Source: a virus
Lineage: Duplodnaviria; Heunggongvirae; Uroviricota; Caudoviricetes
Length of the DNA: 41,654 nt
Virus record (IMG/VR): IMGVR_UViG_2531839667_000017
Coordinates: 1 to 41,654 of that record
Direction: 5' to 3' (one strand)
A program made the translations under genes and the position numbers. Each line of letters opens with the position of its first letter. Within the stretch, counting starts at the first letter, position 1. The notes beneath the pieces are model-generated. The model had not been told where the DNA came from and made no database searches. It saw nothing but the letters and a program-made list of their open reading frames with translations. Shown in pieces: positions 3,001 through 23,601 of this stretch.

Positions 3001-3243
3001 AAATCCCTCCGGCGGTGTCTGCTCCTGCTCACCGGCCCGGAACACCACCGTGACGCCGGATATATTGGTATTCCCCTCACTGTCCAGCACCGGCGTACTA
3101 TTCAGCAGCACGCTTTTTAATCCATCCACCGGACCTTCAACCGGCCCTTCGCTGATGGCATCAATCACACTCAGCAGTTGCGTGGACTTCAGGTTGTCCT
3201 TCGCTTCGCGCGGGGTATGCCCCTTACTGCTTCCTTTGCCCAT
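1..3243 (-). CDS. J: tail tip / host specificity protein J (central fibre)
   Basis: 1080-aa ORF with ATG at 3241-3243 and TAA at 1-3; N-terminal ~950 aa collinear with lambda J as recalled ([24 protein letters not shown]...); C-terminal ~130 aa diverges. Confidence 0.9.
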
Positions 3244-3303
3244 TCGTCATGCTCCATAAACGACAAAACCGCCCGGAGGCGGTTTCACATGAAATATTTT
3301 GCA

Positions 3304-3975
3304 TCAGCGGCCAATCACCACAACCTGACCACCGTCCCCTTCGTCTGCCGTGCTGATCTCCTGAGAAACCACGCGTGACCCCACGCGCATTTCACCGTAC
3401 AGAACCGGCAGAACATTGCCCTGGGCAACCATGTTATCCAGTGAGGAGAAATAGGTGTTTTGTTTGCCGTTATCCGTTGTCTGTGTACGGGGAGTTCTGG
3501 CTTTCGGTGCCAGCATTTGCGCCACACCACCGAGCACCATACTGGCACCGAGAGAAAACAGGATGCCGGTCATACCACCGGCCCCAATGGCTGCCCCCCA
3601 TGCTGCAAGGGTGGCTCCGGCGGTAAAGAATGATCCGGCAATGGCGGCAGCCCCCAGGACAATCTGGAATACGCCACCTGACTTGGCCCCGGCGACTCTG
3701 GGAACAATATGAATCACAGCGCCATCAGGCAGAGTATCATGTAACTGCGCCGTTAACCCGGACGTGCTGACGTCCCGCCCGGCAATCCGTACCTGATACC
3801 AACCGTCGCTCAGTTTCTGACGAAACGCCGGAAGCTGTGTGGCCAGCGCCCGGATGGCTTCAGCACCCGTTTTCACACGAAGGTCGATGCGGCGGCCAAA
3901 TCGTTGTAAATCCCCGTAAAGGCAGATGCGTGCCATGCCCGGTGACGCCAGAGGGAGTGTGTGCGTCGCTGCCAT
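3304..3975 (-). CDS. I: tail assembly protein I
   Basis: 223 aa, MAATHTLPLASPGMARICLYGDLQRF... matches lambda I; position between K and J. Confidence 0.88.
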   Translation of the reverse strand: MAATHTLPLASPGMARICLYGDLQRFGRRIDLRVKTGAEAIRALATQLPAFRQKLSDGWYQVRIAGRDVSTSGLTAQLHDTLPDGAVIHIVPRVAGAKSGGVFQIVLGAAAIAGSFFTAGATLAAWGAAIGAGGMTGILFSLGASMVLGGVAQMLAPKARTPRTQTTDNGKQNTYFSSLDNMVAQGNVLPVLYGEMRVGSRVVSQEISTADEGDGGQVVVIGR

Positions 3976-4616
3976 TTGTCGGTATACCTCTCTCGTTTGC
4001 TCAGTTGTTCAGGAATATGGTGCAGCAGCTCGCCGTCACCACAGTAAATGGCGGCATGATTCGGCACCGATGAACCAAAGCAGCACAGCAGCACATCGCC
4101 CGGCTGCGCCGCTGACAACGGCACCTGATACAGCCCCGTTGCCTCCAGATTATCCAGATAGAGATTCTGACCGTGACGCCACCAGTCATCCTCCCGCGTA
4201 AAATCCGGCATCTCAATCCCCGCCAGATGGTAAGCGTCCCGGAACAGCGTGTAACAGTCCGTCACCCCGTGCTCAAAGCGCCGCCCGGTGAGATGCGGCA
4301 CACAGCGGAACTTGTGAATCGCCCCCCGGCAGACCAGCCACCACGGCAAATCACTCTGCACCTGCAGCCGCCGGTCGGCCTCACTCAGCCAGGGCAGACC
4401 ACCGGGATGACTGTGGACCAGCGCCACAATCTCACCCTGCATCTCTGCCTGCAGCCAGTCCTCCGGCGACATCCGGAAATAATCCTCCGGCTCACCGGAG
4501 ATATTCACGCAGGGAAAATATCTTTCCCCCTCCGGCGTTCTCACCACGAAGCCGCACGACTCCGCTGGCGCACATCGCCGGGCGTGCGCCAGAATCGCTG
4601 ATTCTGTCTCTGTCAT
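3873..4616 (-). CDS. K: tail assembly protein K (MPN/JAMM plus NlpC/P60-like domains)
   Basis: 247-aa ORF with HSHP...D JAMM-like motif and C-terminal Cys/His peptidase-like region; ATG at 4614-4616 is 5 nt downstream of the L stop; 3' end overlaps I by 103 nt as in lambda. Confidence 0.85.
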   Translation of the reverse strand: MTETESAILAHARRCAPAESCGFVVRTPEGERYFPCVNISGEPEDYFRMSPEDWLQAEMQGEIVALVHSHPGGLPWLSEADRRLQVQSDLPWWLVCRGAIHKFRCVPHLTGRRFEHGVTDCYTLFRDAYHLAGIEMPDFTREDDWWRHGQNLYLDNLEATGLYQVPLSAAQPGDVLLCCFGSSVPNHAAIYCGDGELLHHIPEQLSKRERYTDKWQRRTHSLWRHRAWHASAFTGIYNDLAAASTFV

Positions 4617-4621
4617 GGGAT

Positions 4622-5320
4622 TTACTGCGAAAGTTTGTTAATGGAAAGGAAGCCGCCAAAGTTGCCGACGTTATTGCGAAACTTACAGCCACTCAGGCAT
4701 TTGCTGCATTTATCCTTCGTGATATCGGACGTCGGCTGGTCATATTCATCCGCGACCGCCGGACCGCTATAACCGCACTCATCACCGCGATAGGTCCAGG
4801 TACAGGTGTTGGCCAGCATGATGCGCCCCGGAAAAACAGCACCATCCGTTTCCGTCGGTGTGGACAACACAAAGGAGGCACTGACCGCGCTCAGTTCGCT
4901 GCACTGCTCGATGCGCCAGCGGCTGATCACCTCCTGCTCCGGATCGGCATCGCTGTTTCCGTTGACGAAGTTCACCGCATCCAGAAAACGGGCGTAAACC
5001 TTACGCCTGACCACCGTTCCGCCGACCAGACTCTGCAGATCTTCCACCATCCCGGTGACCATGCCGTACAGGTTAGAGACTGCCAGCGTGGGGCGCGTAC
5101 TGGTGCCTTTGCCATTCAGTTCAAAACCACTCCCCTGAATGGGATACGCCAGATACTGCCGCCCCTGCCAGGTGACCGGCTCACCTTTTTCGTTCTGCTC
5201 ATTACAGAAAAAATAACGTTCACCACCGACCTCTGTCAGATCGATTTCCCAGAGCACCACGCTGGCCGACTGCTCCGCACGGGTGCATTCATTCAGTGTT
5301 TCCTGCCGGATATCCTGCAT
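4622..5320 (-). CDS. L: minor tail protein L
   Basis: 232 aa, same length as lambda L with strong similarity; conserved position. Confidence 0.9.
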   Translation of the reverse strand: MQDIRQETLNECTRAEQSASVVLWEIDLTEVGGERYFFCNEQNEKGEPVTWQGRQYLAYPIQGSGFELNGKGTSTRPTLAVSNLYGMVTGMVEDLQSLVGGTVVRRKVYARFLDAVNFVNGNSDADPEQEVISRWRIEQCSELSAVSASFVLSTPTETDGAVFPGRIMLANTCTWTYRGDECGYSGPAVADEYDQPTSDITKDKCSKCLSGCKFRNNVGNFGGFLSINKLSQ

Positions 5321-5649
5321 CAGTTCACCACCTGTTTAAACTCTGCGCTGAACTCAACACGCAGCATACTGACCCGCGACGTCCATTTTGCGCAGGTCAC
5401 CTTTATCTGCCGCCAGTCATAAGGCGGCGTCCACAGAAAGGCTTTCCAGCCTCCGTGCTCTGCCAGAAACGATTCCAGCGCCGTGGCCTCCCAACGGGGG
5501 ACAGAAATCGTCACGCTGTACGTTTTCAGGTTGGCATTCAGCCCGGCAGGCGCGCGCTGGGAGTAACCATCACCAAAGCGCACCTCCCTGACGGAAGGAG
5601 TCGAAGCCACATCCATACCCGGTTTCACTTTCCAGCGGAAGGTTTTCAT
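5320..5649 (-). CDS. M: minor tail protein M
   Basis: 109 aa, MKTFRWKVKPGMDVASTPSVREVRFGDGYSQ...; lambda M-like. Confidence 0.9.
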   Translation of the reverse strand: MKTFRWKVKPGMDVASTPSVREVRFGDGYSQRAPAGLNANLKTYSVTISVPRWEATALESFLAEHGGWKAFLWTPPYDWRQIKVTCAKWTSRVSMLRVEFSAEFKQVVN

Positions 5650-8225
5650 CGTCCACCTCCGGAGAACAGACCACCATCACGCATCTGCCCGGTCACAACA
5701 TCCATTGCCGCCTTACGGGCTACGTCATAAACCGCCTTCAGCGCCTGTGGCCCTATCTGACCGTTCGTGCCGTCGTTGTTAATCACCACATGGTTATTCT
5801 GCTCAAACTTCCCGGACGCCTGCGACCGACTGTCCGCCATGCTGCCCGGTGTACCGACATAACCGCCGGTGGCATAGCCGCGCATCAGCCGGTAAAGATT
5901 CCCCACGCCAATCCGGCTGGTTGCCTCCTTCGTGAAGACAAATTCACCACGGTGAACAATCCCCGCTGGCTCATATTTGCCGCCGGTTCCCGTAAATCCT
6001 CCGGTCGCAAAATGGAGTTTCGCCGCAGCGGCCTGAATGGCTGCACCACCTGACGCTGATGAGCCGCCACCGGTAGCACCTCCAATGGCGCTGCCGATAC
6101 TCCCGACAATCCCCACCATTGCCTGCTTAAGCAGAATTTCTGTCATCATGGACAGCACGGAACGGGTGAAGCTGCGCCAGTTCTGTTCACTGCCGGTCAG
6201 CATCGCCGCCATATTCTGTGCAATACCATCAAAGGTCTGCGTGGCTGCACTTTTAACCTGCGACATACTGTCCGTGGCGCTCTCTTCCCACTCACTCCAG
6301 CCGGACTTCAGGCCTGCCATCCAGCTCCCACGAAGCTGGTCTTCAGCCGCCCAGGTCTTTTTCTGCTCTGACATGACGTTATTCAGCGCCAGCGGATTAT
6401 CGCCATACTCCTCCTTCAGGCGCTGTTCCGTGCCTTCCCGTTCTGCCTGCCGGTCAGTCAGCCCCCGGCTTTTCGCATCAATGGCGGCCCGTTTTGCCCG
6501 TTGCTGCTGTGCGAATTTATCCGCCTGCTGCGCCAGCGCGTTCAGGTGCTCCTGATACGTAACCTTGTCGCCAAGTGCAGCCAGCTGGCGCTTGTACTCC
6601 AGCGTCTCATCTTTATGCGCCAGCAGGGATTTCTCCTGTGCAGACAGCTGGCGACGTTGCGCCGCCTCCTCCAGTACCGCGAACTGATTCTCCGCCTTCC
6701 ACAAATCCCGGCGCTGCTGGCTGATTTTCTCATTCGCTCCGGCATGCTTCTCCAGCGTCCGGAGTTCTGCCTGAAGCGTCAGAAGGGCAGCATGAGCACT
6801 GTCTTCCTGACGATCGCCCGCAGACACCTTCACGCCGGAGTGCTTCGGCTTTTTCAGCGTCGCTTCATAGTCCTTTTTCGCCGCCGCCATCAGCGTGTTG
6901 TAATCTGCCTGCAGGATTTTCCCGTCCTTCAGTGCCTTGTTCAGTTCTTCCTGACGGGCGGTATATTTCTCCAGCGGCGTCTGCAGGCGTTCGTAAGCCT
7001 TCTGCGCCTCTTCGGTATATTTCAGCCGTGATGCCTCAGAGTCGGCCCAGTCCTTTGCTGCCATCTCTCTGGCCTTTTCAAGATCGGCCTTCAACGTGGC
7101 GGCTGAAAGCCCAAGTTGCGCATTCACTCTGTCCTCCCATGCTCCACGGAGATTGGCAAGAAATGCTGAGGTTTTACCGCGCCGGTGGCTTCGGCTCTGA
7201 TACCACTGCCATTTTTTATCCGCTTCATCAAAAGCCTTTTCAGCTTTGGCGAGCATATCTGCAGAGGAGTCCGGGCGGCCAATATCCAGCACCGCATCCC
7301 ACATGGATTTGAATGCCTGTGCAGTCTTGTCAGCCCAGGTCTCCAGCGTACCCATGTTCTCTTTCAGGCGGCGGGTCTGGTCATCAAACCCTTTCGTTGC
7401 GGCCTCGTTCGCCGCCTGCAACGCCCCGGCCCCATCGCCGGAACGCTGCAACTGAGCAACATACGCAATCTGTTCCGCCGTCACGTTATGGAACTGGCGC
7501 GCCATCGCCGTCAACCCAGACGTCGGGTCAGTGGTCAGCTTCCCGAAGGCTTCAGCGACCTTGTCCACCTCCACGCCGGATGCAGAGGAGAAACGCGCCA
7601 CACTCTGGCTGATTGCCTCAAACTGCTCACCACCACGCACACCGGCATTCACCAGCGCCGTCAGTGACTCGCTGGTCTGGTTAAACGTCAGCCCTGCCGC
7701 CTGCCCGGATCTGGACAGGGCCAGCATACGATCTGCCGTCAGTCCCGCCTGATTACCGGAAAGGACCAGCGTTTTGTTGAAATTAGACAGGGTTGAGTCA
7801 CCCTGATACCAGGCATACGCCAGCGCACCGGTCGCCACCGCTAGCGAAGTGATACCAACCATCGGCAGGGTGATCGCACCGGCAAGCCCCCTGAACATGG
7901 GGATCATCCCGCCGAAGGAGTCCTTCACCTGACCGCCCTGTTGCAGCAGGATCAGCCACGGACTTTGCCCGCCTGCAAGCTGCGTGGCCACGTCGGTGAA
8001 CTGCGCAGGCAGCATACGCATGGCAGCTTTATACTGCCCGACGGAAATCCCCGCTTTCTGTGCAGCCAGCGCCTGTCGGTTCATCGACTGTTCAACGACT
8101 GCCGCTGTTTTTTTCGCATCACTTTCCGTACCGGAAAAATGACGCCTGACTCTGGCCATCTGCTCGTCAAATCTGGCCGCATCCAGACTCAAATCAACGA
8201 CCAGATCACCTACCGGTTCAGCCAT
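5646..8225 (-). CDS. H: tail tape measure protein H
   Basis: 859 aa, Ala/Gln-rich coiled-coil centre and Gly-rich C-terminus; lambda H-like; follows G-T. Confidence 0.9.
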   Translation of the reverse strand: MAEPVGDLVVDLSLDAARFDEQMARVRRHFSGTESDAKKTAAVVEQSMNRQALAAQKAGISVGQYKAAMRMLPAQFTDVATQLAGGQSPWLILLQQGGQVKDSFGGMIPMFRGLAGAITLPMVGITSLAVATGALAYAWYQGDSTLSNFNKTLVLSGNQAGLTADRMLALSRSGQAAGLTFNQTSESLTALVNAGVRGGEQFEAISQSVARFSSASGVEVDKVAEAFGKLTTDPTSGLTAMARQFHNVTAEQIAYVAQLQRSGDGAGALQAANEAATKGFDDQTRRLKENMGTLETWADKTAQAFKSMWDAVLDIGRPDSSADMLAKAEKAFDEADKKWQWYQSRSHRRGKTSAFLANLRGAWEDRVNAQLGLSAATLKADLEKAREMAAKDWADSEASRLKYTEEAQKAYERLQTPLEKYTARQEELNKALKDGKILQADYNTLMAAAKKDYEATLKKPKHSGVKVSAGDRQEDSAHAALLTLQAELRTLEKHAGANEKISQQRRDLWKAENQFAVLEEAAQRRQLSAQEKSLLAHKDETLEYKRQLAALGDKVTYQEHLNALAQQADKFAQQQRAKRAAIDAKSRGLTDRQAEREGTEQRLKEEYGDNPLALNNVMSEQKKTWAAEDQLRGSWMAGLKSGWSEWEESATDSMSQVKSAATQTFDGIAQNMAAMLTGSEQNWRSFTRSVLSMMTEILLKQAMVGIVGSIGSAIGGATGGGSSASGGAAIQAAAAKLHFATGGFTGTGGKYEPAGIVHRGEFVFTKEATSRIGVGNLYRLMRGYATGGYVGTPGSMADSRSQASGKFEQNNHVVINNDGTNGQIGPQALKAVYDVARKAAMDVVTGQMRDGGLFSGGGR

Positions 8226-9056
8226 ACCGGACTCCTCCTGCGATCCCTTCTGATACTGTCATCAGCATTACGTCATCCTCCGTCATGTCCGCCACATCCG
8301 GGGAAGCGGGGATAACTTCATTCCCGTCAGGGCCAAAACGAACGCCTCCGGCAAGCCCTGCCGCTTTCTGCATCAGCACATCATCTTCAGGCTCTTCGTC
8401 AGCCTCACGCCGGCTCAGCAGACTGAAATCCAGCGGATGCATATCCGGATCGCTGAAAAACAGGCTGAGCACGGTGTACGTCAGCCCGGAAAAGTGCATA
8501 TCCAGCAGAACATCATGAAAATAATGGGTACTGTAAAAGCGGTGCCAGTCGGCATACTCCGTGGATGACATCCCGGCAAGCATGGCGCGCCAGTCGGGTC
8601 GCCCCATCTCACGCGCCAGTTTCAGGGCAAAACTCAGCTCACCGTCGAACACTTTCCCGCAGAAACAGGCTCTGCAGGCCCGGCGTCATCTGTCTGTTCA
8701 GGGGCATTATTCACAACAAACTCAGACATTCCGGACAGACGTAACACAACGTTTTCAGCCTGAGCAATTGCCTCCGTGGGCCAGGTGGTAAGCACTTCCT
8801 GCTCAATCTGCGTAATGGCTTCATTCATGGACGGCAGCTTTGTTTTCTGCGGATGGTTATGCCACAGAGACATCGCCACCAGAAACGCCCCGCCTCTGAT
8901 AAGATCCTCTACAGACACCTGCAGGTTGCCACTGGATTCAGCCTTTTTTTCCTGCTCTTTCAACCAAGCAAGATGCTCAATACGCTGCAGGGCTGACAGT
9001 TCAGAAAGCGTGACGGTCACGCCGTTATGTTCAAATGATTCGGTTTTCAGGAACAT
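8218..9056 (-). CDS. T: tail assembly chaperone G-T fusion, made by programmed -1 ribosomal frameshift at GGGAAAG
   Basis: After a -1 slip at G GGA AAG the reading continues VFDGELSFALKLAREMGR... (T frame, 8218-8652), which has no independent start with an RBS; the arrangement is the lambda G/GT one. Confidence 0.85.
8634..9056 (-). CDS. G: tail assembly chaperone G
   Basis: 140 aa ending ...PVSAGKCSTVS; slippery heptamer G GGA AAG is in the last codons (minus-strand equivalent of 8652-8658). Confidence 0.9.
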   Translation of the reverse strand: MFLKTESFEHNGVTVTLSELSALQRIEHLAWLKEQEKKAESSGNLQVSVEDLIRGGAFLVAMSLWHNHPQKTKLPSMNEAITQIEQEVLTTWPTEAIAQAENVVLRLSGMSEFVVNNAPEQTDDAGPAEPVSAGKCSTVS

Positions 9057-9071
9057 CTCTGACTCTCCGGA

Positions 9072-9812
9072 TTAGCTGTCGGTGACGTTGATTTCTGCAA
9101 CCGCAGCAAACTCACCATTACCGGATACGACCGGAATGTTGACCTTGCCTGCAGCAACGCCCTTCACGGTGATGGTCATCCCACTGACCGACACGGTGGC
9201 TTTTGTTTTATCCGCTGACACCGCACGGAAGCTCTTGTCGGTTGCGCCTTCCGGCTGGAATGCCACGGTCAGCGTGGTGCTCTGCCCTTTCACTACGGAA
9301 GCACTGGCTGGCGTTACCGTCATGCCGGTTGCCGCTGTCACCGTGCTGCGATCTTCTGCCATTGACGGACGGCCCACATTGGTGACCTTCACCGTACGGG
9401 TGATCACTTCCTTCGCCGTCACTGCCTTACCGATACTGCTGACCCAGCCACGGAACACATCGACCGTGCCGTTCGGGAAGCGGATTTTATAGGCACGGGT
9501 ATCGCCTTCATTAAACCACGCCAGCAGCGCCTGCTGCCCCTGCTCTCCGGGCATCCACGCCAGCGTGAAGCTGGTATCTCCGGCGGATTTCTGCCCCTGC
9601 CCGGTCGCGGCCCAGTCCGGATCTTCATCATCGAGATAACTGTCGTCATAGGACTCTGCGGTCAGTTCGCCGGGCGTCAGTTCTTTAACTTTTGCCAGAC
9701 GCGACCAGTCAACGTCTGAAAGCGGGTTCGCATAAGGGTCACCGTTCCCCTTATAAACCCACAGGGTGGTTCCGGCCCCTTTCACCGGTGCCAGAGGATT
9801 TGGTGTTGGCAT
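9072..9812 (-). CDS. V: major tail tube protein V
   Basis: 246 aa from ATG 9810-9812 ([22 protein letters not shown]...) with GAGGA SD; Ig-like C-terminus; ORF-track start at 9842 is probably an over-extension. Confidence 0.88.
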
Positions 9813-9819
9813 ATCGTCC

Positions 9820-10215
9820 TCACATTTCATAGGTAATGACATAAGTCAGATCGGCTGAACTCCACAGGCCCGCATCATCGTCGCGCCGGTAGTCATAGCC
9901 ACTGGCCACCATACTGGTGATCAAATCTGACAGTGCCGGGATATCGTTCATCACCGGATAAATCCGGGACTCCATCCACGCATCCAGCTCTGAATCCGGT
10001 ACCTGAGCAGGCAGGAAAACTTCAATATGCAGCTCCGCCTGCCAGGTATCGCTGTCCAGCTCTTCGCCCGTGTATTCAGCGCCGGTGAGATAAACGGCAA
10101 CTGCCGGAAAATCCGCCTCATCAAAAACAGCGGGGCGACCATCAAAAAGCGTCGCCCCGGTGTCATGCTTCTCCAGTGCATCCAGTACGGCTGCACGGAG
10201 TTCAGTATGTTTCAT
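9820..10215 (-). CDS. U: tail terminator protein U
   Basis: 131 aa, lambda U-like; start codon overlaps the Z stop (ATGA). Confidence 0.9.
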
Positions 10216-10745
10216 CGCTTTATTACCATCCTCAGTTGATGCTGCAGCGCATAGCCCAGCTCTTTCGGAAGACGCTCACGCCGTATCTGTTCAATATTCT
10301 GTTTAAACGCCGTGGTCAGCGGCACCGCCATCGGGATTTTCACCACATCAATGGGGTAACGGTTTTTCCCGGCCACACGCTGCATGACATGCCAGCGACC
10401 ATTTTTTAATCGCTGGATAAATGCCCGCTGATAACGATGCTGACCGGCCCGTAGCGTACTGTTGGGACGACTTCCGGTGATCCGTATCCCCAGTTTGATG
10501 ACAGGTAAATCACCGCGGTTAACAATGATTTTTACGTGCGGATTTTTGACCGTGGCCTTTTTCAGTCTGGCCCTTTCCTTTACCAGTTTTCGCCGCACCT
10601 TTGTCTCACGGGCAACCTGTGACGCCGACTGATTCATTGCCGTTGTGGCCACGCGGTTAATGGCCATTGCGGAGGCACCGGGCACTGCCGTTTTGCTGAT
10701 ACGGCTGAGGTTTTCAACGGCCTGCTCAAGACCTTTTATGGCCAT
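10212..10745 (-). CDS. Z: tail completion protein Z
   Basis: 177 aa, lambda Z-like sequence and position. Confidence 0.85.
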   Translation of the reverse strand: MAIKGLEQAVENLSRISKTAVPGASAMAINRVATTAMNQSASQVARETKVRRKLVKERARLKKATVKNPHVKIIVNRGDLPVIKLGIRITGSRPNSTLRAGQHRYQRAFIQRLKNGRWHVMQRVAGKNRYPIDVVKIPMAVPLTTAFKQNIEQIRRERLPKELGYALQHQLRMVIKR

Positions 10746-10756
10746 ACCTCCTCCTT

Positions 10757-11110
10757 TCAGCGGCGACGGTTAACGGCAGGCGGTACGCCCCGCCCAAGCC
10801 AGAGATGACAGCTTCCGCCATCATCCGGCGAAATCCGGTCTATCCAGAAGTTTTCCTCACCGATGCTCAGCGTGTCGCCGCGCCGCAGCTGCCGCACATC
10901 ATCAGTCCGGACAAACAGGGACGGGCTGGAGCCTTCAACGCGCACGCCCTGTCCGGCATAGCTGATATTTTCAGGGTCATCAAAAACACCACGTATCACA
11001 GCACCGGACTGCTCACCGGATGTCATGGTGGCTGACGTTCCCATGTACCCGCGTATCGTTTCATCGGCGCAGGCAATGGCAGCATCGAACAGGTTATCGA
11101 AATCAGCCAC
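10757..11110 (-). CDS. FII: head-tail joining protein FII
   Basis: 117 aa, GTG start at 11108-11110 preceded by GGGAGG; MADFDNLFDAAIA... lambda FII-like. Confidence 0.9.
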   Translation of the reverse strand: MADFDNLFDAAIACADETIRGYMGTSATMTSGEQSGAVIRGVFDDPENISYAGQGVRVEGSSPSLFVRTDDVRQLRRGDTLSIGEENFWIDRISPDDGGSCHLWLGRGVPPAVNRRR

Positions 11111-11121
11111 AGCGCCTCCCG

Positions 11122-11517
11122 TTATTGCATTCTGGCCAGGCCGCGCTCTGTCATTTCAGCTGCCACACCGGCAGAGACACGGAACGCCGTTCCCGGCAGC
11201 ACAAATGCCACAGCCTCATCCCGCGTGGCGTGAAGTGCATCAGTATGCAGCGTCACCAGTGCCACAACCGTGACCAGATCAGCCGTATCAGTCACGGTAT
11301 CCGGCTGCGCTGATACCAACTCATTTTCATGCCCGGTCAGCGCATTTTCCGGGCTGACAGATGTGTCCTGACCGGCAGCGTCATCCGTGTCATTAAGCTC
11401 CTCTTCCAGCTCTGCCACACGGAGTGCCAGTTCTTCTTTCGTCCCCGTCAGGCTGACATCACGGTTCAGTTGCTCACCCAGCACCTGAAGACGGGCAATC
11501 AGTTCATCTTTCGTCAT
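11122..11517 (-). CDS. FI: DNA packaging protein FI
   Basis: 132 aa from ATG 11515-11517 (MTKDELIARLQ...) preceded by GGAGGAG; lambda FI-like. Confidence 0.85.
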   Translation of the reverse strand: MTKDELIARLQVLGEQLNRDVSLTGTKEELALRVAELEEELNDTDDAAGQDTSVSPENALTGHENELVSAQPDTVTDTADLVTVVALVTLHTDALHATRDEAVAFVLPGTAFRVSAGVAAEMTERGLARMQ

Positions 11518-11558
11518 GGACTCCTCCACAGAGAGAAAATGGCCCCGAAGGGCCATGA

Positions 11559-12584
11559 TTACGCCAGTTGTACGGACACGAACGCATCAGGGTCAGCCAG
11601 CAGCATCAGCGGTGCTGACTGAATCATGGTGAACTCACACGCCGGATCGCCGGTGGTCACCCAGTTTTTCGGGTAGCGGGCAGAGGCGTTAATACCTTCG
11701 CGCTGTGCGTCCGCATCCTGAATGCAGCCATAGGTGCGCAGACCGCGTGCCTGAGTGTTCCCCAGCACCATCGTGTTGTCCGGCAGGAAGTTCTTTTTGA
11801 CGTCGTTTTCCACGTACTGTCCGGAATACACGACGATCGCCGTATCGCCATACATCCCCTTATAGGACACCGCTTCGCCCAGGTCTTTTACCGCAGTCTC
11901 CAGCTCGGAATTAGAGCCGCGACGGGTATCCAGCTTCTCCTTGACGGCTTTGAAGGAACGGAACAGCGCCCAGCCTTTCGGATCAAACACGATGATGTTC
12001 ACCACACCGCTGGCGTTCAGCGCGTAGGCTTCGATATCGTCGGTCGGGTCATACGTGGACTTGTCACGCTTGCTCCACTCCGTGCCACCGGACTGTGTGA
12101 TGTTGTTCGCCGCACTGCGGCCCATATCCACCTCAACCGGATCGAAGGCTTCACCGGTCATGGTGTATTTGCCCTTGAGCACAGCAGAAACGGCCTGCAT
12201 CTCTTCGACCTGAGCAATGGCAAGCTCCTCATCACGCATGTTTTGCATGATGATGCGACGGCGGCGGTAAGCCGGATCCGCCAGATTCTGTGGATCTTCA
12301 TCCGGCAGGCGACGCAGGGTCATCTGCGGATTCACCTCATGCTTCGGCTTGACATATCCCGGCGTAAATTCAGAGGTGGAGCCACCACGGGAGCGGATAA
12401 CCTCACCGGAAACAATTGGCGAAACGTACAACGCCATGTTTACCAGTCCCGGAATTTGTGAGAGATAGACTTTCTCCGTGGTGAAGGGATAGCTCTCACG
12501 GAAAAAGAGACGCAGAAACAGCGGATCAAACTTAAATTTCTTCTCATTTGCCGCCAGCAGCTGGGCGGTTGTGTACATCGACAT
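11559..12584 (-). CDS. E: major capsid protein E
   Basis: 341 aa from ATG 12582-12584 (MSMYTTAQLLAANE...); near-identical to lambda E as recalled. Confidence 0.92.
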   Translation of the reverse strand: MSMYTTAQLLAANEKKFKFDPLFLRLFFRESYPFTTEKVYLSQIPGLVNMALYVSPIVSGEVIRSRGGSTSEFTPGYVKPKHEVNPQMTLRRLPDEDPQNLADPAYRRRRIIMQNMRDEELAIAQVEEMQAVSAVLKGKYTMTGEAFDPVEVDMGRSAANNITQSGGTEWSKRDKSTYDPTDDIEAYALNASGVVNIIVFDPKGWALFRSFKAVKEKLDTRRGSNSELETAVKDLGEAVSYKGMYGDTAIVVYSGQYVENDVKKNFLPDNTMVLGNTQARGLRTYGCIQDADAQREGINASARYPKNWVTTGDPACEFTMIQSAPLMLLADPDAFVSVQLA

Positions 12585-12639
12585 AAAAAAATCCCGTAAA
12601 AAAAGCCGCACCGGCGGCCTTTAGTGATGAAGGGTAAGG

Positions 12640-12972
12640 TTAAACGATGCTGATTGCCGTTCCGGCAAACGCGGTCCGTTTTTTCGTCTCGTCGGTGGCA
12701 GCCTCCGGCCAGAGCACATCCTCATAACGGAACGTGCCGGACTTGTAGAACGTCAGCGTGGTGCTGGTCTGGTCAGCAGCAACCGCCAGAATGCCAACGG
12801 CAGCACCGTCGGTGGTGCCATCCCACACAACCAGCTTACGGGTGGAGGTATCCGGCATCAGCGGGGTCATTGCAGGCGCTTTCGCACTCAATCCGCCGGG
12901 CGCGGTTGCCGTATGTGCCGGGTCACTGTTGCCCAGCGGCTGGTAATGGGTAAAGGTTTCTTTGCTCGTCAT
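12640..12972 (-). CDS. D: head decoration protein D
   Basis: 110 aa from ATG 12970-12972 ([27 protein letters not shown]...); lambda D-like. Confidence 0.92.
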
Positions 12973-12981
12973 AAACATCCC

Positions 12982-13587
12982 TTACACTGGTGTGTTCAGC
13001 AAATCGTTAACGGCATCAGATGCCGGGTTACCTGCAGCCAGCGGTGCCGGTGCCCCCTGCATCAGACGATCCAGCGCAGTGTCACTGCGCGCCTGTGCAC
13101 TCTGTGGTGCAGCTGCCAGAATGCGGCGGGCCGTTTCCACGGTCATACCGGGGGTTTCGGCCAGCACGCGTGCCTGTTCTTCGCGTCCGTGAGCCTCCTC
13201 ACAGTTGAGGATCCCCATAATGCGGCTGTTTTCTGCCGCAACCGCTGCGGTGATCTGCGCGTTCACATCCGGCTGCGCCGCGCTGGCGTTTTTGCCCTCC
13301 GTCGCTTGCACCACGCCAGTAACGTCAGCCTGCGAAGCAGTGGCTGAAACAGTTGTTGATTGAGTCTCTTTGGTCATTCGCCCTCCTGAGAGACGGGATT
13401 TACGTGTATCCAGTGCATCACGCATGACGGTGATCGCATCGGTACTGTTAACAAGTTCATCAGCCAGTCCGGCATCAATGGCCTCCTGACCGCTGTACAC
13501 TGCAGCCTCGGTATCCAGCACAGCCTGCACGGACAGGCCGGTATATGCCGATACCTTCTGTGCAAACATCCGGCGGGTTGCATCCAT
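12982..13587 (-). CDS. nu3: scaffold protein Nu3 (in-frame internal start within C)
   Basis: ATG at 13585-13587 (MDATRRMFAQKVSAYTG...) in the C frame gives 201 aa sharing the C-terminus of C, as for lambda Nu3. Confidence 0.7.
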   Translation of the reverse strand: MDATRRMFAQKVSAYTGLSVQAVLDTEAAVYSGQEAIDAGLADELVNSTDAITVMRDALDTRKSRLSGGRMTKETQSTTVSATASQADVTGVVQATEGKNASAAQPDVNAQITAAVAAENSRIMGILNCEEAHGREEQARVLAETPGMTVETARRILAAAPQSAQARSDTALDRLMQGAPAPLAAGNPASDAVNDLLNTPV

Positions 13588-14281
13588 CCGGGACTGCAGT
13601 GTTTCCCGGACATCATCCGGTAGATGGCTGTAGGGGTTGCCATCCACCTTATGGCTGCCGCTGTAAATCAGCGTGATTTCCACGCCCTGTTTCTCCAGCG
13701 CAGCGCCGTAATTACTGTGAGCCATCATGACGCCGATGGAGCCTGTCCGGGCGGTCTGCGTGACCAGACGCCGGGAGGCGGCACTGGCAAGCAGCTGACC
13801 TGCACTGCAGTTCATGTCGTTGGCCAGCGCCCATACCGGTTTTATGTCACGCACACGGGCGATGATGTCAGCGCAGTCAAATGCCCCCGCCACCATCCCG
13901 CCGGGCGTGTCCATATCGAGCAGAATGCCGTCCACCATCGGATCGCTGGCAGCCTGTTGCAGACGGGCGATAATGCCGTTGTAACCGGTCATCCCCGAAT
14001 ACGGCTGCAGCGCCCGCGTCCGGCTGACCAGCGTGCCGGAAACCGGCAGCACGGCGATGCCGTTCATGACCTGATAACTGCGGGCCTGTCGTGGTCCGTC
14101 ATCATCACCGGATAACGCCAGCGTCGCGGGTGCCTCTCCGGCAGTCAGGCTGTCACCGGACACCGCATCTGTCAGGCGGCTGATCCCAAGCTGGCCTGCA
14201 AGCGCACAAAAGAAAACCCGCGCATAGGCGGGTTCAAGCATCAGCGGCTCATTAAAGGCCATGCTGGCAATATGCGGGAGA

Positions 14282-14301
<20 letters not shown>
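12982..14301 (-). CDS. C: capsid assembly protease C (S49 family)
   Basis: 439 aa from GTG at 14299-14301 (VTAELRNLPHIASMAFNEP...); lambda C-like; 5' end overlaps the 3' end of B. Confidence 0.85.
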
Positions 14302-17982
<3,681 letters not shown>

Positions 17983-18008
<26 letters not shown>

Positions 18009-18528
18009 TCAGCAACCCCGGTATCAGTTCATCCAGCGCGGCTGCTTTGTTCATGGCTTTGATGATATCCCGTTTCAGGAAATCAACATGTCGGTTTTCC
18101 AGTTCCGGAAAACGCCGCTGCACCGACAGTGGGATCCCGTCGAGAATACTGGCAATTTCACCTGCGATCCGCGACAGCACGAAAGTACAGAATGCGGTTT
18201 CCACCACTTCAGCGGAGTCTCTGGCATTTTTCAGCTCCTGTGCGTCGGCCTGCGCACGCGTAAGTCGATGGCGTTCGTACTCAATAGTCCCTGGCTGGAG
18301 ATCTGTCTCGCTGGCCTGCCGCAGTTCTTCAACCTCCCGGCGCAGCTTTTCGTTCTCAATTTCAGCATCCCTTTCGGCATACCATTTTATGACGGCGGCA
18401 GAGTCATAAAGCACCTCATTACCCTTGCCACCGCCTCGCAGAACGGGCATTCCCTGTTCCTGCCAGTTCTGAATGGTACGGATACTCGCACCGAAAATGT
18501 CAGCCAGCTGCTTTTTGTTGACTTCCAT
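17983..18528 (-). CDS. nu1: terminase small subunit Nu1
   Basis: 181 aa, MEVNKKQLADIFGASIRTIQNWQEQGMPV...; lambda Nu1-like; 3' end overlaps A. Confidence 0.92.
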
Positions 18529-18760
18529 TGTTCATTCCACGGACAAAAACAGAGAAAGGAAACGACAAAGGCCAAAAAGCCCGTTTTCAGCACCTGTCGT
18601 TTCCTTTCTTTTCAGGGGGTATTTTAAATAAAAACACTAAGTTACGACGAAGAAGAACGGAAACGCCTTAAACCGGAAAATTTTCATAAATAGCGAAAAC
18701 CCGCGAGGTCGCCGCCCCGTAGCCTGCCGGATCGCCGGAAAGGACCCGCAAGCGTTCTGG
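18529..18760 (-). other. cos site (cosB-cosN-cosQ region); cosN 12-nt cohesive end at 18706-18717
   Basis: Minus strand reads GGGCGGCGACCT CGCGGGTTTTCGCTATTTATGAAAATTTTCCGGTTTAAGGCG..., matching the lambda left end as recalled, directly upstream of Nu1. Confidence 0.85.
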
Positions 18761-19017: not shown

Positions 19018-19566
19018 TCAGGCTTGAATACCTTTATCGAATCCCGGTAATAAAAACTGTCCCTGTCTCTCCAGACGTTCCAGCTTTGCAAGCAATTGAG
19101 GTTTTTTCGTTCTCCCCCAGCGATTGAGCAGACGGCCTGACATGCTGGCGACATCCTTCTCTTTCATGTACTCCAGCATTACGGCGTTACGTTCTGCTTC
19201 ATAACTTTCGCTGTACTTACGGAGTTCTGCTGACATCCAGTTAAACGCATTGATATAGGCTTCTTTAACAGCATCGGCTTTTGCCCCGTTAAATCCCATA
19301 ACCAGCATAACGAAGCCACTAAAGTCCATGCGGTAGTAAATCTGTTTCTTGTCAAAAATCCCTAAGTCATTGATTTTCTCGACGGCCCAAAAATGGGTTG
19401 TCGAGAATTCCTCAGAACATCTCAAACATTTAATAGCCCTAATCACATGCTGATGGCGTTTACCAAATGCCCTGGCAATCTGGAAGGTGTCAGTTACCGG
19501 TTGACCTTCTGCTGCGGTAACTAACTGGCGAAAGTCGAAGTCATGATTCGCAATTAATTCATTCAT
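19018..19566 (-). CDS. Rha-family phage regulatory protein (antirepressor-like)
   Basis: 182 aa from ATG 19564-19566; motif FQIARAFGKRHQHVIRAI resembles the Rha family signature; sits between lysis cassette and cos. Confidence 0.55.
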   Translation of the reverse strand: MNELIANHDFDFRQLVTAAEGQPVTDTFQIARAFGKRHQHVIRAIKCLRCSEEFSTTHFWAVEKINDLGIFDKKQIYYRMDFSGFVMLVMGFNGAKADAVKEAYINAFNWMSAELRKYSESYEAERNAVMLEYMKEKDVASMSGRLLNRWGRTKKPQLLAKLERLERQGQFLLPGFDKGIQA

Positions 19567-19718
19567 GGCGTTGCCTGCTTCTTTGAAATGAACCTTTGCC
19601 GCACAGGAAACCAGCCCACCGAGGCTCGCCAGCACTAACTGGTATCCTCAAAGGCCCATTCCAAAGGGTCAGGTTCGGTGTTTATTGTGCGCTGCGGTGC
19701 GCGGTGAAATACCGGTAC

Positions 19719-19747
19719 AAAAATGCCCCGCATCTGCGAGGCATTTT
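19719..19747. terminator. bidirectional intrinsic terminator between Rz and rha
   Basis: A-run, hairpin GCCCCGCA-TCTG-CGAGGC (7-bp stem), then T-run; reads as a terminator on either strand. Confidence 0.6.
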
Positions 19748-19784
19748 CCTGAAAGTCACTTGTTAAATTTCAGTGAAATTAAAA

Positions 19785-20222
19785 TTATTTTAAGCACTGC
19801 GTCCTGATGTATTCCTGCAGGTAGTTAACCTGCGCGGTTATCTTGTCGATTCCACCTCGGAGACGGTAATAATTGAGTTCAGCATCTGCTGTAAGCCCTG
19901 GGCTTTCTCCATCGCCCATGCTGCTGGCTCCGGTCGTTGACTTTGCACAGGTGGCGGAGACTTGCAGGCGCTTACGACCAGCAGAAACATCGGCACGGAG
20001 ACTTTCGATAGTCGCGTTAGCATCAGCAAGTTCCTTTGTATATCTTGCGTCGAGTTCTGCTACATCACGTTGACGCTTCTGCATATCAGCGATGATGGAT
20101 GTGGCTTTATCGCGCTGCTCTTTGTAGGCGATGGCGTTATCACGGTAATGATTAACAGCCCATGACAGGCAGAGGATGATGCAAATAACCAGAGCGGAGA
20201 TAATCGCGGTTACCCTGCTCAT
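19785..20222 (-). CDS. Rz: i-spanin Rz
   Basis: 145 aa from ATG 20220-20222 ([31 protein letters not shown]...); N-terminal TM plus coiled coil; start overlaps endolysin stop. Confidence 0.88.
19838..20029 (-). CDS. Rz1: o-spanin Rz1 (lipoprotein, embedded in Rz in the +1 frame)
   Basis: 63-aa ORF wholly inside Rz; signal peptide ending in lipobox-like LVVSAC, then Pro-rich segment. Confidence 0.7.
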
Positions 20223-20716
20223 TGCTGCCCCCACAAACAGACTTCACGCTCAATATCACGACGGGTCATCAGCCCTTTCCATTGCTTACCGCCAGCGTAT
20301 GTCCAGCGACGTAGCTGGTCACATGCGCCTTTGATATCACCCTGGTTTATTTTGCGAAGAAGCGTCGATGTTCTGAAATTACCAGCGCCCACGTTGTAAA
20401 CGAACGAGTAAAGAGCGCCGCGCGTTGTTTCCGGTATATCGACTTTGATGTACGGGTTAATTTGTCTGGCGACCGTGGCAAGGTCTTTATTCAGGAGGGC
20501 TTTGCATTCTGCTTCGGTATACGTTTTACCGGGAATGATGTCTTTTCCGGTGTGTCCGTGACATACAGTCCATACGCCAACGATATCTTCGTATGGTATG
20601 TAGCTGACACCTTCCAGGCCATCGTCACCACTCGGACCAGTGATGAGCACAGACGCTATGGCAACAGCCCCACCACCAATAGCAGCAGCAACAGCCTTGC
20701 GTAATGATGGCGACAT
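20219..20716 (-). CDS. R: SAR endolysin (lysozyme with N-terminal signal-anchor-release domain), phage-21 R-like
   Basis: 165 aa; Gly/Ala-rich weakly hydrophobic N-terminus ([20 protein letters not shown]) followed by a lysozyme domain; very similar to phage 21 endolysin as recalled. Confidence 0.85.
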
Positions 20717-20931
20717 TATTCACCTCTCGCAGCCTTACGCTTATCTTCTTTAATCTTGAAATAAAGGTTTGTCAGATACGTCAGCAAGCCAAACACCAGG
20801 CTACCCAATACGCCTATTGCCACCCACTGGGATGGGGAGACTTTGTCCAGCAACTGCAGTAGCCAGTATCCCGTCCCCACCGCTGACGTGGTGTATGACA
20901 CACCTGTTGTGATTTTTTCCATCTGGTACAT
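20716..20931 (-). CDS. S: pinholin, phage-21 S-like, with dual translational starts (ATG 20929-20931 and ATG 20920-20922)
   Basis: 71 aa [26 protein letters not shown]...[14 protein letters not shown]; two TM segments; Met1/Met4 dual-start motif; stop overlaps endolysin start (TAATG). Confidence 0.85.
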
Positions 20932-21339
20932 ACCCCGTCTCCCGTTATCCGGAAGCTGACAACAATAAAAAGCCACCAGTTAATTCCTGATGGCCCTGAT
21001 GCATAAACGTCATAATACCTGACTGTTATGATTGACAATAATGATAATGTTTATATAGAAAGGTTCCCGATGTGTGTTACATATCATTTCTCCACGGGGA
21101 ATATCCCCACGCCAGCGCAGACTCTTTTACCCGTTCTCTTCTGCGCTGGCTCTTTTTTATTATGCTGCTGCATTTACCTCTGGCACCATGCTTTCTATCT
21201 CAACACAATACGTGGTACTTCTTGTAACCAATATCATAACGATTAATCGACATAGAATTTCTCCCGTGTACAGGAACAGAGTTAAAAAGCCGGAACCGGA
21301 ATCAAATCACAGGATGACCATCTGCCAGTGGCAGGTCAT

Positions 21340-21366
21340 AAAAAAAAGGCCGCGCCATGCGCAGCC
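21340..21366 (-). terminator. intrinsic terminator on the late strand (candidate tR')
   Basis: Minus-strand RNA GGCUGCGC-AUG-GCGCGGCC (8-bp stem with one G-U) followed by U8. Confidence 0.65.
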
Positions 21367-21796
21367 AGAACTCACAAGGAAAATGATAGAAGGAAATAAC
21401 ATTAGTGATGTACGCATGGCGCCTCCCGCTAAGTTCTGCAATGATCAAACAGAACTCGCTACGTGCCCTTAAAACTCGATCATTTAGCCCCTCCAAGGAG
21501 GATTCACCATGCGGTTGATTTTTTAATAAACAGTAAACAAAAAAGTCAAGAATTATTCATTCTGTTCTTTCATCATCGGCCACAGCAATACCACAATGCC
21601 GCAGACCAGAGCGCCATCAGTCAGTACCAACATTATCCTGCTGGTGAAATCCATCATCACCATCACTAAAAGCAGGATCACAACAGCAAGCAGACACAGT
21701 TTATAAAACAATGTTCAGAAAACGCATTCAGCATGCCTAAGGTTCTATTCCTACGAATAGCCAACTTGCAACTTAAAATATTATTTATGCAGCCAA

Positions 21797-22555
21797 TTAA
21801 ATTCTGGTCCTTACAATATCAACCTGAAGATTCTTATCTTGTGCTGATTGATAAATGACAAACCTTTTACTACCTGCATTGAAAGAAGTAGACAAAACCA
21901 GACAATTATCATAACGAGCAAGAACATAATACCAACCATCATTATAATTAATCATTTCATATTCTTTCTTAAACTGCGGTTTGTAATATCCTGTCAGAAA
22001 TGAAAAAAGCCAGAAATATGCCACAAAAGCAATCATCACAATCTCAAAAAAATGTTTTTTTATAAATGGCTTATCATAGAAGCATGATACCGATAAAAAT
22101 CGCCCATAAGATCTTATCGAAATTGTAACCGCCAGCGCAATCGCTGCTGACAGTAGCAAAAGAGGTACCTGAATCTTCTGTCTCAATATAGAAAACTCAA
22201 TAATTGCCGGCACAAACAATAATTCCACAGCAAAATAAAGGCGAAATACATTTAGCTCTTGCATAGAATGTTTTCTTTTCACTGCGAAAAAGAATACAAC
22301 ACCAATACCCCAACCGATAAGAAATATAGCAATGACGATAACTGCAAAAAATAAACTTCTGGCAACATCATCAACACCTGCACCTACAATCCACCATGGG
22401 AAGCCGTAGTAAAAAGAAGTACCCCATCCATAGAAATAAGCACTCCCCCATCCAAGGCATCCCATGTAGGCAATAAAAAGTGAAGAACTCCTGAGCAGTG
22501 CACCATCCTTCATAACCACCCCAATACAAGATGATAACATTGGCTTACAACTCAT
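21797..22555 (-). CDS. AT-rich polytopic inner-membrane protein of unknown function (moron)
   Basis: 252-aa ORF (start uncertain; in-frame ATGs at 22555, 22540, 22513); four to five predicted TM helices and a ~55-aa soluble C-terminal tail; markedly AT-rich against flanking phage DNA; lies between pR' and the lysis cassette. Confidence 0.6.
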   Translation of the reverse strand: MSCKPMLSSCIGVVMKDGALLRSSSLFIAYMGCLGWGSAYFYGWGTSFYYGFPWWIVGAGVDDVARSLFFAVIVIAIFLIGWGIGVVFFFAVKRKHSMQELNVFRLYFAVELLFVPAIIEFSILRQKIQVPLLLLSAAIALAVTISIRSYGRFLSVSCFYDKPFIKKHFFEIVMIAFVAYFWLFSFLTGYYKPQFKKEYEMINYNDGWYYVLARYDNCLVLSTSFNAGSKRFVIYQSAQDKNLQVDIVRTRI

Positions 22556-22721
22556 AACAAAAGCAATTCAATGCCGTCAAGAGGTTACAGGCTAAAAAAA
22601 CTCTATTACATTGCAGTCAGCATGTTTACTACACAAATACAATTCAGAGCATAAAAACTACTCGGCGGCAGGTTATTGAGACTCATCAATGACATGTAAA
22701 AAACGCCCATTATTGGTGTCA

Positions 22722-22750
22722 AGTTTCCCCAAAGTTATTCAAAAAGTCAA
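22722..22750 (-). promoter_or_regulatory. late promoter pR' with Q-binding region (-35 TTGACT at 22745-22750; -10-like GAAACT at 22722-22727)
   Basis: Directly downstream of the Q stop; minus strand TTGACT-ttttgaataactttggg-GAAACT is homologous to, but diverged from, lambda pR' as recalled. Confidence 0.55.
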
Positions 22751-22792
22751 TATTATGCCGTTAATATGTTGCCATCCGTGGCAATCATGGCG

Positions 22793-23416
22793 CTAACGTG
22801 TGATCGCATTCAAAATGTTGTCTGCGATTGACTCTTCCTTGTGGCATTGCACAACCAGAGCGTCATACAGCGGCTTAACAGTGCGTGACCAGGTGGGTTG
22901 GGTAAGGTTTGGGATTAGCATCGTCACAGCGCGATATGCGGCGCTTGCTGGCATTCTTGAATAACCGACGCCTTTACATCTTCCGCACTCTTTCTCAGCA
23001 ACTATCCCCCACTGCTCTGTTTTGGCTATATCAACCGCACGGCCTGTACCGTGGCAATCTCTGCATCTTGCGCCCGGCGTAGCGGCACTACGGCAATAAT
23101 CCGCATAAGCGAATGTTGCGAGCACTTGCAGTACCTTTGCCTTAGTATTTCCTTCAAGCTTTGCCACGCCACGGTATTTCCCCGATACCTTGTGTGCAAA
23201 TTGCATCAGATAGTTGATAGCCTTTTGTTTGTCGTTCTGGCTGAGTTCGTGCTTACCGCAGAATGCAGCCATTCCGAATCCGGCTTGTGATTGCGCCATC
23301 CCCATAGCAGCCATCACATCAGTACCGGAAAGAGAGTCAGAAGCCGTGGCCCGTGGTGAGTCGCTCATCATCGGGCTTTTTGGCGAGTGAAATTTAGCTA
23401 CGCTTTCGAGTCTCAT
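22793..23416 (-). CDS. Q: late gene antiterminator Q
   Basis: 207 aa, MRLESVAKFHSPKSPMMSDSPRATASDSLSG...; near-identical to lambda Q as recalled. Confidence 0.92.
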   Translation of the reverse strand: MRLESVAKFHSPKSPMMSDSPRATASDSLSGTDVMAAMGMAQSQAGFGMAAFCGKHELSQNDKQKAINYLMQFAHKVSGKYRGVAKLEGNTKAKVLQVLATFAYADYCRSAATPGARCRDCHGTGRAVDIAKTEQWGIVAEKECGRCKGVGYSRMPASAAYRAVTMLIPNLTQPTWSRTVKPLYDALVVQCHKEESIADNILNAITR

Positions 23417-23601
23417 GGTCTTCCCCTCTTGCCCTGTTTGACCATCAGGACGCCGTTAACTATTACGTGACGCTCGCCTTTGCTGTCTCGGTTGTACTTG
23501 AGCACTGTTCCTCTTGCGCAGGAAAGCATCCTCGCCACTTCGGTCTGATTTCCTCGTGTCTGGATAAGAAGCTCTGGTATCGTTTGAATTGTGGCGTTCA
23601 T
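23413..23601 (-). CDS. ninH: NinH (small DNA-binding protein)
   Basis: 62 aa with GNQTEVAR...RGTV..Y HTH-like motif resembling lambda NinH; start overlaps rusA stop. Confidence 0.75.
   Translation of the reverse strand: MNATIQTIPELLIQTRGNQTEVARMLSCARGTVLKYNRDSKGERHVIVNGVLMVKQGKRGRP

Follow-up and report, generated by a model that had tools for sequence, protein, structure and literature searches.

Phage 21 lyses its host with a set of four genes, and its complete, expert-annotated genome (OL657228.1, cassette at 39866..41036) serves as the reference herein, with proteins compared by global alignment. Its holin, S, is a class II holin of 71 aa with paired M-x-x-M starts, for which the record annotates the longer product, S21-71, as antiholin and the shorter, S21-68, as pinholin; it is followed by the signal-anchor-release (SAR) endolysin R, and by the spanins Rz and Rz1, the latter embedded in the former in the +1 frame. 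In lambda, S is a 107/105-aa canonical holin with three transmembrane domains (TMDs), and R is a soluble transglycosylase that lacks an N-terminal hydrophobic segment. The locus considered here is unlike lambda in both of these genes, and has the gene order of phage 21. It lies on the minus strand, at 20931..19785, of a 41,654-nt stretch of DNA from a virus of the Caudoviricetes (IMG/VR record IMGVR_UViG_2531839667_000017, positions 1 to 41,654; the whole of this stretch is referred to as the window). Very probably, it represents the lysis cassette amongst the late genes of a lambda-type prophage, and works by the phage 21 route of pinholin, SAR endolysin and two-component spanin. This reading of the lysis route is based on the structure of the genes, on homology, on the genomic context, and on catalytic and oligomerisation residues that are conserved.

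Organisation of the lysis cassette

The cassette contains four intact lysis genes, S, R, Rz and Rz1, all of which are on the minus strand. S (20716..20931) encodes a class II holin (pinholin) of 71 aa when read from Met1, with the start MYQMEK, whilst a second in-frame ATG at codon 4 defines a shorter product of 68 aa (20716..20922). R (20219..20716) encodes a SAR endolysin of 165 aa, a lysozyme of the GH24 family. Rz (19785..20222) encodes an i-spanin of 145 aa with an N-terminal TMD, and wholly within it, with a frame offset of (20222-20023) mod 3 = 1, lies the gene for the o-spanin lipoprotein Rz1 (19838..20023, 61 aa). At the S/R junction, which on the minus strand reads AATAATGTC, the stop codon TAA of S and the start codon ATG of R share one A, giving TAATG. 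At the R/Rz junction, CAATGAGC on the same strand, the overlap between the stop codon of R and the start codon of Rz is ATGA. The phage 21 record has the same gene overlaps, of 1 nt (S/R) and 4 nt (R/Rz).

Each of the four proteins matches a Pfam profile far above its gathering score: S is assigned to PF04971, 'Bacteriophage P21 holin S' (1.1e-32), R to PF00959 (2e-45), Rz to PF03245 (1e-34) and Rz1 to PF06085 (3.3e-19). Judged by these scores, the features of the cassette are evidently not due to chance. In NCBIfam, S, Rz and Rz1 matched no specific model, and the matches of R all stayed below threshold.

The holin and endolysin pair

It is the first two genes that tie the cassette to phage 21. 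S is identical to S21 at 53/71 positions (74.6%), as against 27% for lambda S, and R is identical to R21 at 155/165 positions (93.9%), as against 21% for lambda R. S scores 112.2 bits with PF04971, for which the cut-off is 26, and is 93-99% identical to the holins of Stx phages and of phage 434. The Stx-phage holins of this allele have been classed amongst the pinholins, in the P21 holin S family (PMC10462455), and in the curated records of phages 21 and 434 the homologues of S, R and the spanins are labelled as pinholin, SAR endolysin, i-spanin and o-spanin. The hydropathy of S reveals two hydrophobic segments, of which TMD1 (residues 7-28) is weakly hydrophobic (50% G/A/S/T, mean Kyte-Doolittle value of 0.75), with a mean of 1.6 for TMD2 (residues 36-58). 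A length of ~70 aa, two TMDs, the first of them weakly hydrophobic, and a charged C-terminus give S the profile of a class II holin. Within TMD2, the residues G40, S44 and G48 are kept, and with them the glycine-zipper face G40xxxS44xxxG48, which, from the literature on S21, we take to be the oligomerisation face.

With regard to R, the protein matches the PDB entries 3HDE (R21; 3.5e-106) and 4ZPU (RrrD of DLP12; 4.8e-107), in both cases over residues 1-165. As the match to 3HDE spans this whole range, the solved chain includes the N-terminal SAR segment. The N-terminus of R carries R6 and K7, followed by residues 8-27 with a G/A/S/T content of 65%, and within residues 1-30 the only differences from R21 are P2S and I18V, both conservative. 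R also keeps the E35-X8-D44-X5-T50 triad, in agreement with the E-X8-D-X5-T lysozyme triad described for SAR endolysins (PMC9239132). The first Cys of R occurs at residue 52, leaving the SAR domain Cys-free, and P1 Lyz (1XJT) is only a distant match (5e-9). A Cys-free SAR domain is associated with steric activation as in R21, and P1 Lyz with activation by disulfide isomerisation. Structure prediction and fold searches were set aside for this pair, since a solved structure exists at 94% identity to R, and S21, which has been dissected by experiment, is at 75% identity to S.

The spanins

The spanins present a different picture. Rz is 58.6% identical to phage 21 Rz and 60.0% identical to lambda Rz, and for Rz1 the corresponding values are 35 and 37%, respectively. 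The resemblance of Rz to its phage 21 and lambda counterparts is confined to the first ~39 residues, which contain the TMD, after which the sequences diverge. Phage 21 Rz and Rz1 are themselves close to those of lambda in sequence, and the nested +1 architecture is common to both phages. Far closer relatives are found by tblastn: for Rz these are Stx2a_WGPS8/1717/2851 (98.6%), mEp234 (95.9%), HK446 (94.5%) and PS34 gp15 (93.8%), and for Rz1 they are HK75 and HK633 (96.7%), HK022 and Sf6 (95%), HK97 (93.3%) and P22 (91.7%). Kongari et al. 2018 distinguish an o-spanin family that comprises HK97, 2851, HK446, P22, PS34, mEp234 and mEp235 from another to which lambda, 933W and H-19B belong (PMC6139136). 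By these relationships, the window spanins are evidently members of the HK97/P22/PS34/Stx2-1717 allele group, and not of the phage 21/lambda family.

Because the spanins are not of the phage 21 type, whilst the S/R pair is, the cassette is, to judge from its alleles, a mosaic of known modules and not a copy of the phage 21 cassette. Gene by gene, the alleles appear as Stx-phage/434 for S, R21/RrrD for R and HK97/P22 for the spanins. A preliminary description of this DNA had assigned all four genes to the phage 21 type. The features on which it drew are all seen at the locus, namely a 71-aa, two-TMD S with MYQM, a Gly/Ala-rich N-terminus of R, an embedded +1 Rz1 and TAATG and ATGA overlaps. Its assignment is borne out for holin and endolysin, in their alignments to S21 and R21 as well as in the retention of G40/S44/G48. 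For the spanins it is correct as to the nested +1 architecture, but not as to the allele, with the alignments to phage 21 Rz and Rz1 being as low as those given above, and Rz1 being 92-97% identical to the HK97/P22 family.

The two proteins nevertheless have the make-up of an embedded two-component spanin, in which an i-spanin with a TMD and a periplasmic domain harbours, out of frame, the gene for an o-spanin lipoprotein. The TMD of Rz covers residues 5-23 (mean Kyte-Doolittle value of 2.6), and the protein carries periplasmic Cys92 and Cys143. For Rz1, a Shine-Dalgarno sequence, AAGGA, is located 8 nt upstream of the ATG, and the product displays a lipobox, VSAC, with Cys20, a Lys at +2 and five Pro in a mature part of 42 aa. 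As a rule, spanins have one or more periplasmic cysteines through which a homotypic intermolecular disulfide can form (PMC6139136), and such cysteines are found in Rz; in lambda, genetics demonstrates that the C-terminal Rz cysteine/disulfide suffices (PMC6139136). In the RefSeq/PGAP annotation of near-identical loci (e.g. E. coli RM14723, locus 4707..5144), there are entries for the holin, for RrrD and, as a 'lysis protein', for Rz, but none for the embedded Rz1, which is annotated in the Stx2a_WGPS8 record.

The dual start of S

The Shine-Dalgarno sequence of S, GGGAG (20939..20943, minus strand), precedes the ATG of Met1 by 7 nt and that of Met4 by 16 nt, and phage 21 has the same geometry (GGAGG, 7 nt, ATG). 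By analogy with S21-68, the 68-aa product from Met4 is presumed to be the active pinholin. The extension that separates the two starts is MKS in phage 21 and Met-Tyr-Gln in the window, so that Tyr-Gln replaces Lys-Ser, Lys2 is missing and the extension contains neither Lys nor Arg. The antiholin behaviour of S21-71 has been ascribed to its extra N-terminal positive charge (PMC9636201). Thus, where the preliminary description spoke of a dual-start pinholin, both Met codons are in place, with a Shine-Dalgarno spacing like that of S21, whilst the cationic residue of the extension is lacking.

It is conceivable, on this account, that the cassette works but that its two starts do not give a holin/antiholin pair, with one start being essentially the only one used, or with both products being active pinholin; this alternative is regarded as possible, although not as the likely state of affairs. 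Amongst the 120 best homologue clusters of S, a basic residue lies between the two Mets in MYRM (21), MKSM (14), MLRM (6), MKM (3), MMKM (2), MKFM (1) and MHRM (1), and none does in MYQM (29), MDQM (3), MNQM (3) and MFQM (1). The uncharged forms are the near relatives of the window S, whilst more distant ones (MYRM, MKSM, MLRM, MKM) keep the basic residue, a pattern that counts in favour of this alternative. Similarly, the start region of phage 434 reads ATA-CAT-CAG-ATG, with ATA in the place of Met1, and its curators annotate the 68-aa pinholin only, whilst DNA homology between the window and phage 21 starts exactly at the Met4 codon (window 20922 = phage 21 39875). Despite this, most members of the family keep the M-x-x-M spacing, also where no basic residue is present, and the 7 nt between Shine-Dalgarno sequence and Met1 are exactly those of S21, where both starts are used. 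In addition, the release of TMD1 could still be slowed by having to take three added residues across the membrane.

The persistence of a two-Met start without a cationic residue in the MYQM/MDQM/MNQM allele might tentatively be read in one of two ways, as timing control that is independent of charge or as a decaying relic. Charge-independent control may operate through N-terminal length, through competition between the start codons or through a small hairpin over the Shine-Dalgarno sequence; as a relic, the allele may be heading to the single-start state of phage 434. In the minimum free energy (MFE) fold, the Shine-Dalgarno sequence of S is indeed contained in a 6-bp hairpin (CUUCCG/CGGGAG). 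This is a weak observation and not a finding, because the overall z of the RNA fold of the translation-initiation region is only -2.3 and comes mainly from the terminator hairpin upstream. A search of the literature found no reported test of holin/antiholin behaviour for the uncharged MYQM variant, which is very common.

The lambda-type prophage surrounding the cassette

Outside of the lysis genes, much of the window is closely related to lambda. Q (22793..23416, minus strand; PF03589, 1.2e-57) is identical to lambda Q at 203/207 positions (98.1%), and only 18% identical to Q21. At the DNA level, identity is 96% for Q and the pR' -35/-10 region (window 22718..23426 vs lambda 43875..44584), 94-97% from J to cos (window 274..18717 vs lambda 18474..1) and 98% for xis and int up to the attP core (window 38879..40324 vs lambda 29169..27724). 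The gene ybhC adjoins the prophage in the best-matching E. coli genomes, an arrangement consistent with integration at or near the lambda attachment site. Across S and R, the DNA comparison with lambda detects no similarity. Lambda-type Q and head genes, combined with the lack of lambda similarity in S and R, thus support the module swap that the preliminary description had proposed.

The pR'/qut region (22700..22760, minus strand) is lambda-like, with homology ending at about the transcription start. Within it, the pause-inducing AACGAT of lambda is AATAAT, and the -10 element is AAACTT vs TAAATT in lambda, so that a variant qut is paired with a 98%-lambda Q. Between pR' and S there is a 1.8-kb non-lambda insert (20970..22717, minus strand), in the slot that stx occupies in Stx phages. 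It holds an ORF (open reading frame) for a multi-TMD protein of 252 aa without a Pfam match (22555..21797, minus strand) and a DUF3927 gene (21711..21553, minus strand), and looks like a moron cassette. A terminator-like hairpin is present in the insert on the coding (minus) strand at 21366..21348, and a second hairpin, resembling an intrinsic terminator with a U-tract, is found at 20969..20997 (minus strand), ~25 nt upstream of the Shine-Dalgarno sequence of S; at the place of this second hairpin, a terminator is annotated in phage 434. Q-modified polymerase would have to read through both. A scan of the window for tRNA genes returned none, whilst phage 21 and many Stx phages carry such genes between Q and S. 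Similarly, a scan for sigma-70 promoters around the cassette gave 6 sites vs 7.5 expected from shuffled sequence, and no internal promoter is claimed. On the plus strand, an ORF of 132 aa (21074..21472) was considered as a lysis regulator and rejected, because of its overlap with a strong minus-strand terminator hairpin and the lack of any credible family match. This ORF is listed as a hypothetical protein in RefSeq copies of the locus, and may be a spurious call.

Downstream of the cassette, ~37 nt after the Rz stop, a hairpin with A-tract, stem and U-tract appears to form a bidirectional terminator (19719..19748, minus strand); the MFE of the 91-nt stretch is -27.7 kcal/mol, with z = -4.5. 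Between Rz and cos, on the strand of the late operon, there is a gene for a Rha-family regulator with a C-terminal ORF11CD3 domain (19018..19635, minus strand), which occupies the place of the oppositely oriented bor in lambda and phage 21. The early-right region (24621..28709, minus strand) is not lambda-like, harbouring a DnaB-type helicase (483 aa) in place of P, a Dam methyltransferase and a homologue of P22 NinX. The prophage is therefore a mosaic well beyond the lysis cassette.

The early-left (pL) operon contains, downstream of cIII-like DNA, an insertion sequence (IS) of the IS21 family (IS100-like), which measures 1954 bp (window 33205..35158) and ends in 28-nt imperfect inverted repeats. 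Its genes, both on the minus strand, are those for IstA (35072..34050) and IstB (34053..33271). The insertion may exert polar effects on the genes for recombination, xis and int, and may thereby affect inducibility. This interruption of the early-left operon lends some substance to the idea that the lysis genes have fallen silent as leftovers of a defective prophage, comparable to essD-rrrD-rzpD of DLP12, and no longer contribute to lysis, as does the RefSeq name of the endolysin, 'RrrD', which is taken from the DLP12 cryptic-prophage gene. The element leaves the late operon untouched, however, and the window contains, intact, the four lysis ORFs, Q, pR', cos, a full lambda-type head and tail set, int/xis and a repressor. 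A silent remnant is consequently considered improbable.

Proposed course of lysis

Taken as a functional lysis cassette of the phage 21 type, the locus would be expected to act as follows. The lambda-type Q would let RNA polymerase from pR' read through the terminators ahead of S, and S, R, Rz and Rz1 would be translated from a single mRNA, with coupling at the TAATG and ATGA junctions. S would insert into the inner membrane by way of its two TMDs, after which the weakly hydrophobic TMD1 would exit the bilayer. TMD2 could then oligomerise via the G40xxxS44xxxG48 face, forming small pinholes that would collapse the proton-motive force. In keeping with the pinholin family, these holes would be heptameric and of nanometre scale, and a cytoplasmic endolysin could not be released through them. 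R, for its part, would be exported by Sec and held at the membrane, tethered and inactive, by its uncleaved Gly/Ala-rich SAR domain, until depolarisation frees it to refold into an active lysozyme (E35-D44-T50) that would degrade the murein. In the final step, Rz in the inner membrane and the lipoprotein Rz1 in the outer membrane, which would together assemble into a complex that bridges the periplasm, would disrupt the outer membrane.

Of these steps, the dynamics of the topology, the uncleaved signal peptide, the size of the pinholes and the use of both starts are what we infer by homology only. That the signal anchor of R is probably uncleaved, and released by membrane depolarisation, is suggested by the identity to R21 together with the 165-residue chain of 3HDE; as Sun et al. 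are said to have reported in 2009, the enzyme in 3HDE is active and of full length, and still has its SAR domain. Although residues 19-21 of R (A-I-A), followed by Ser22, can be read as fitting the -3/-1 small-residue rule of signal peptidase I, a cleaved signal peptide, and hence a constitutively secreted lysozyme that S is not needed to activate, is most improbable, given that R21 carries the same A-I-A-S motif, that the 165-residue 3HDE chain is matched over its whole length and that over the first 30 residues R and R21 have two conservative differences only.

Several points weigh against the cassette operating along the complete phage 21 route. The MYQ extension has no basic residue, and S may therefore work without the antiholin half of the S21 mechanism. 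Rz1 is without the second cysteine of lambda Rz1, and contains no Cys besides that of the lipobox. The IS100-like insertion in the early-left operon means that the prophage may not be inducible, even though its lysis genes are intact.

Distribution

Of 5426 complete E. coli genomes, 889 carry the whole cassette (at least 80% coverage) and 5189 carry parts of it. The best E. coli matches to the cassette are 99.4-99.6% identical, and the 4.9-kb neighbourhood from Q to Rha is 99.5% identical in several E. coli strains. Amongst phage records, the best matches to the whole cassette are the Stx2 phages 1717, 2851 and WGPS8, with 95.2% over S-R-Rz/Rz1. The cassette is already known, of an ordinary and well-studied type, with nothing new in kind.

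Comparison with known lysis systems

Compared with phage 21, the window shares the layout of the cassette and its first two genes, and differs in the spanins, which in phage 21 are of the lambda type. The DNA leading up to S is also distinct, as phage 21 has Q21 and two tRNA genes before S, whilst the window has lambda Q, the 1.8-kb insert and no tRNA genes. Phage 434 resembles the window in its holin (95.8% identical to window S), in its SAR endolysin and in the terminator just upstream of S; it departs from it in having a single start, with ATA for Met1, and lambda-type spanins of 153 and 60 aa.

Close alleles are encountered in Stx2 phages. The holins of Stx2a_WGPS4 and Stx2a_1447 are 98.6% identical to window S, the Rz of WGPS8 is identical to window Rz at the same level, and the Rz1 of Stx2a_WGPS8 is annotated at 61 aa, the length of window Rz1. 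Despite this, 1717, 2851 and WGPS8 are short-tailed, with different Q and structural genes, and carry stx upstream, whereas the window has lambda Q and lambda virion genes. For the HK97/P22 family, the length of window Rz (145 aa) is the same as that of its closest Rz matches, e.g. Stx2a_WGPS8 and PS34 gp15. At least in P22, spanins of the HK97/P22 type accompany a canonical holin and a soluble endolysin, whilst those of the window come after a pinholin and a SAR endolysin.

With lambda, finally, the window shares the place of the cassette in the late operon, after Q and pR', the embedded spanin architecture and, almost without difference, the first ~39 residues of Rz. The cassette as a whole confirms that lysis modules are exchanged amongst lambdoid prophages by the gene, or by smaller units: here, the Q, cos and virion genes of lambda are joined to a pinholin of the Stx/434 type, a SAR endolysin of the R21 type and spanins of the HK97/P22 type.

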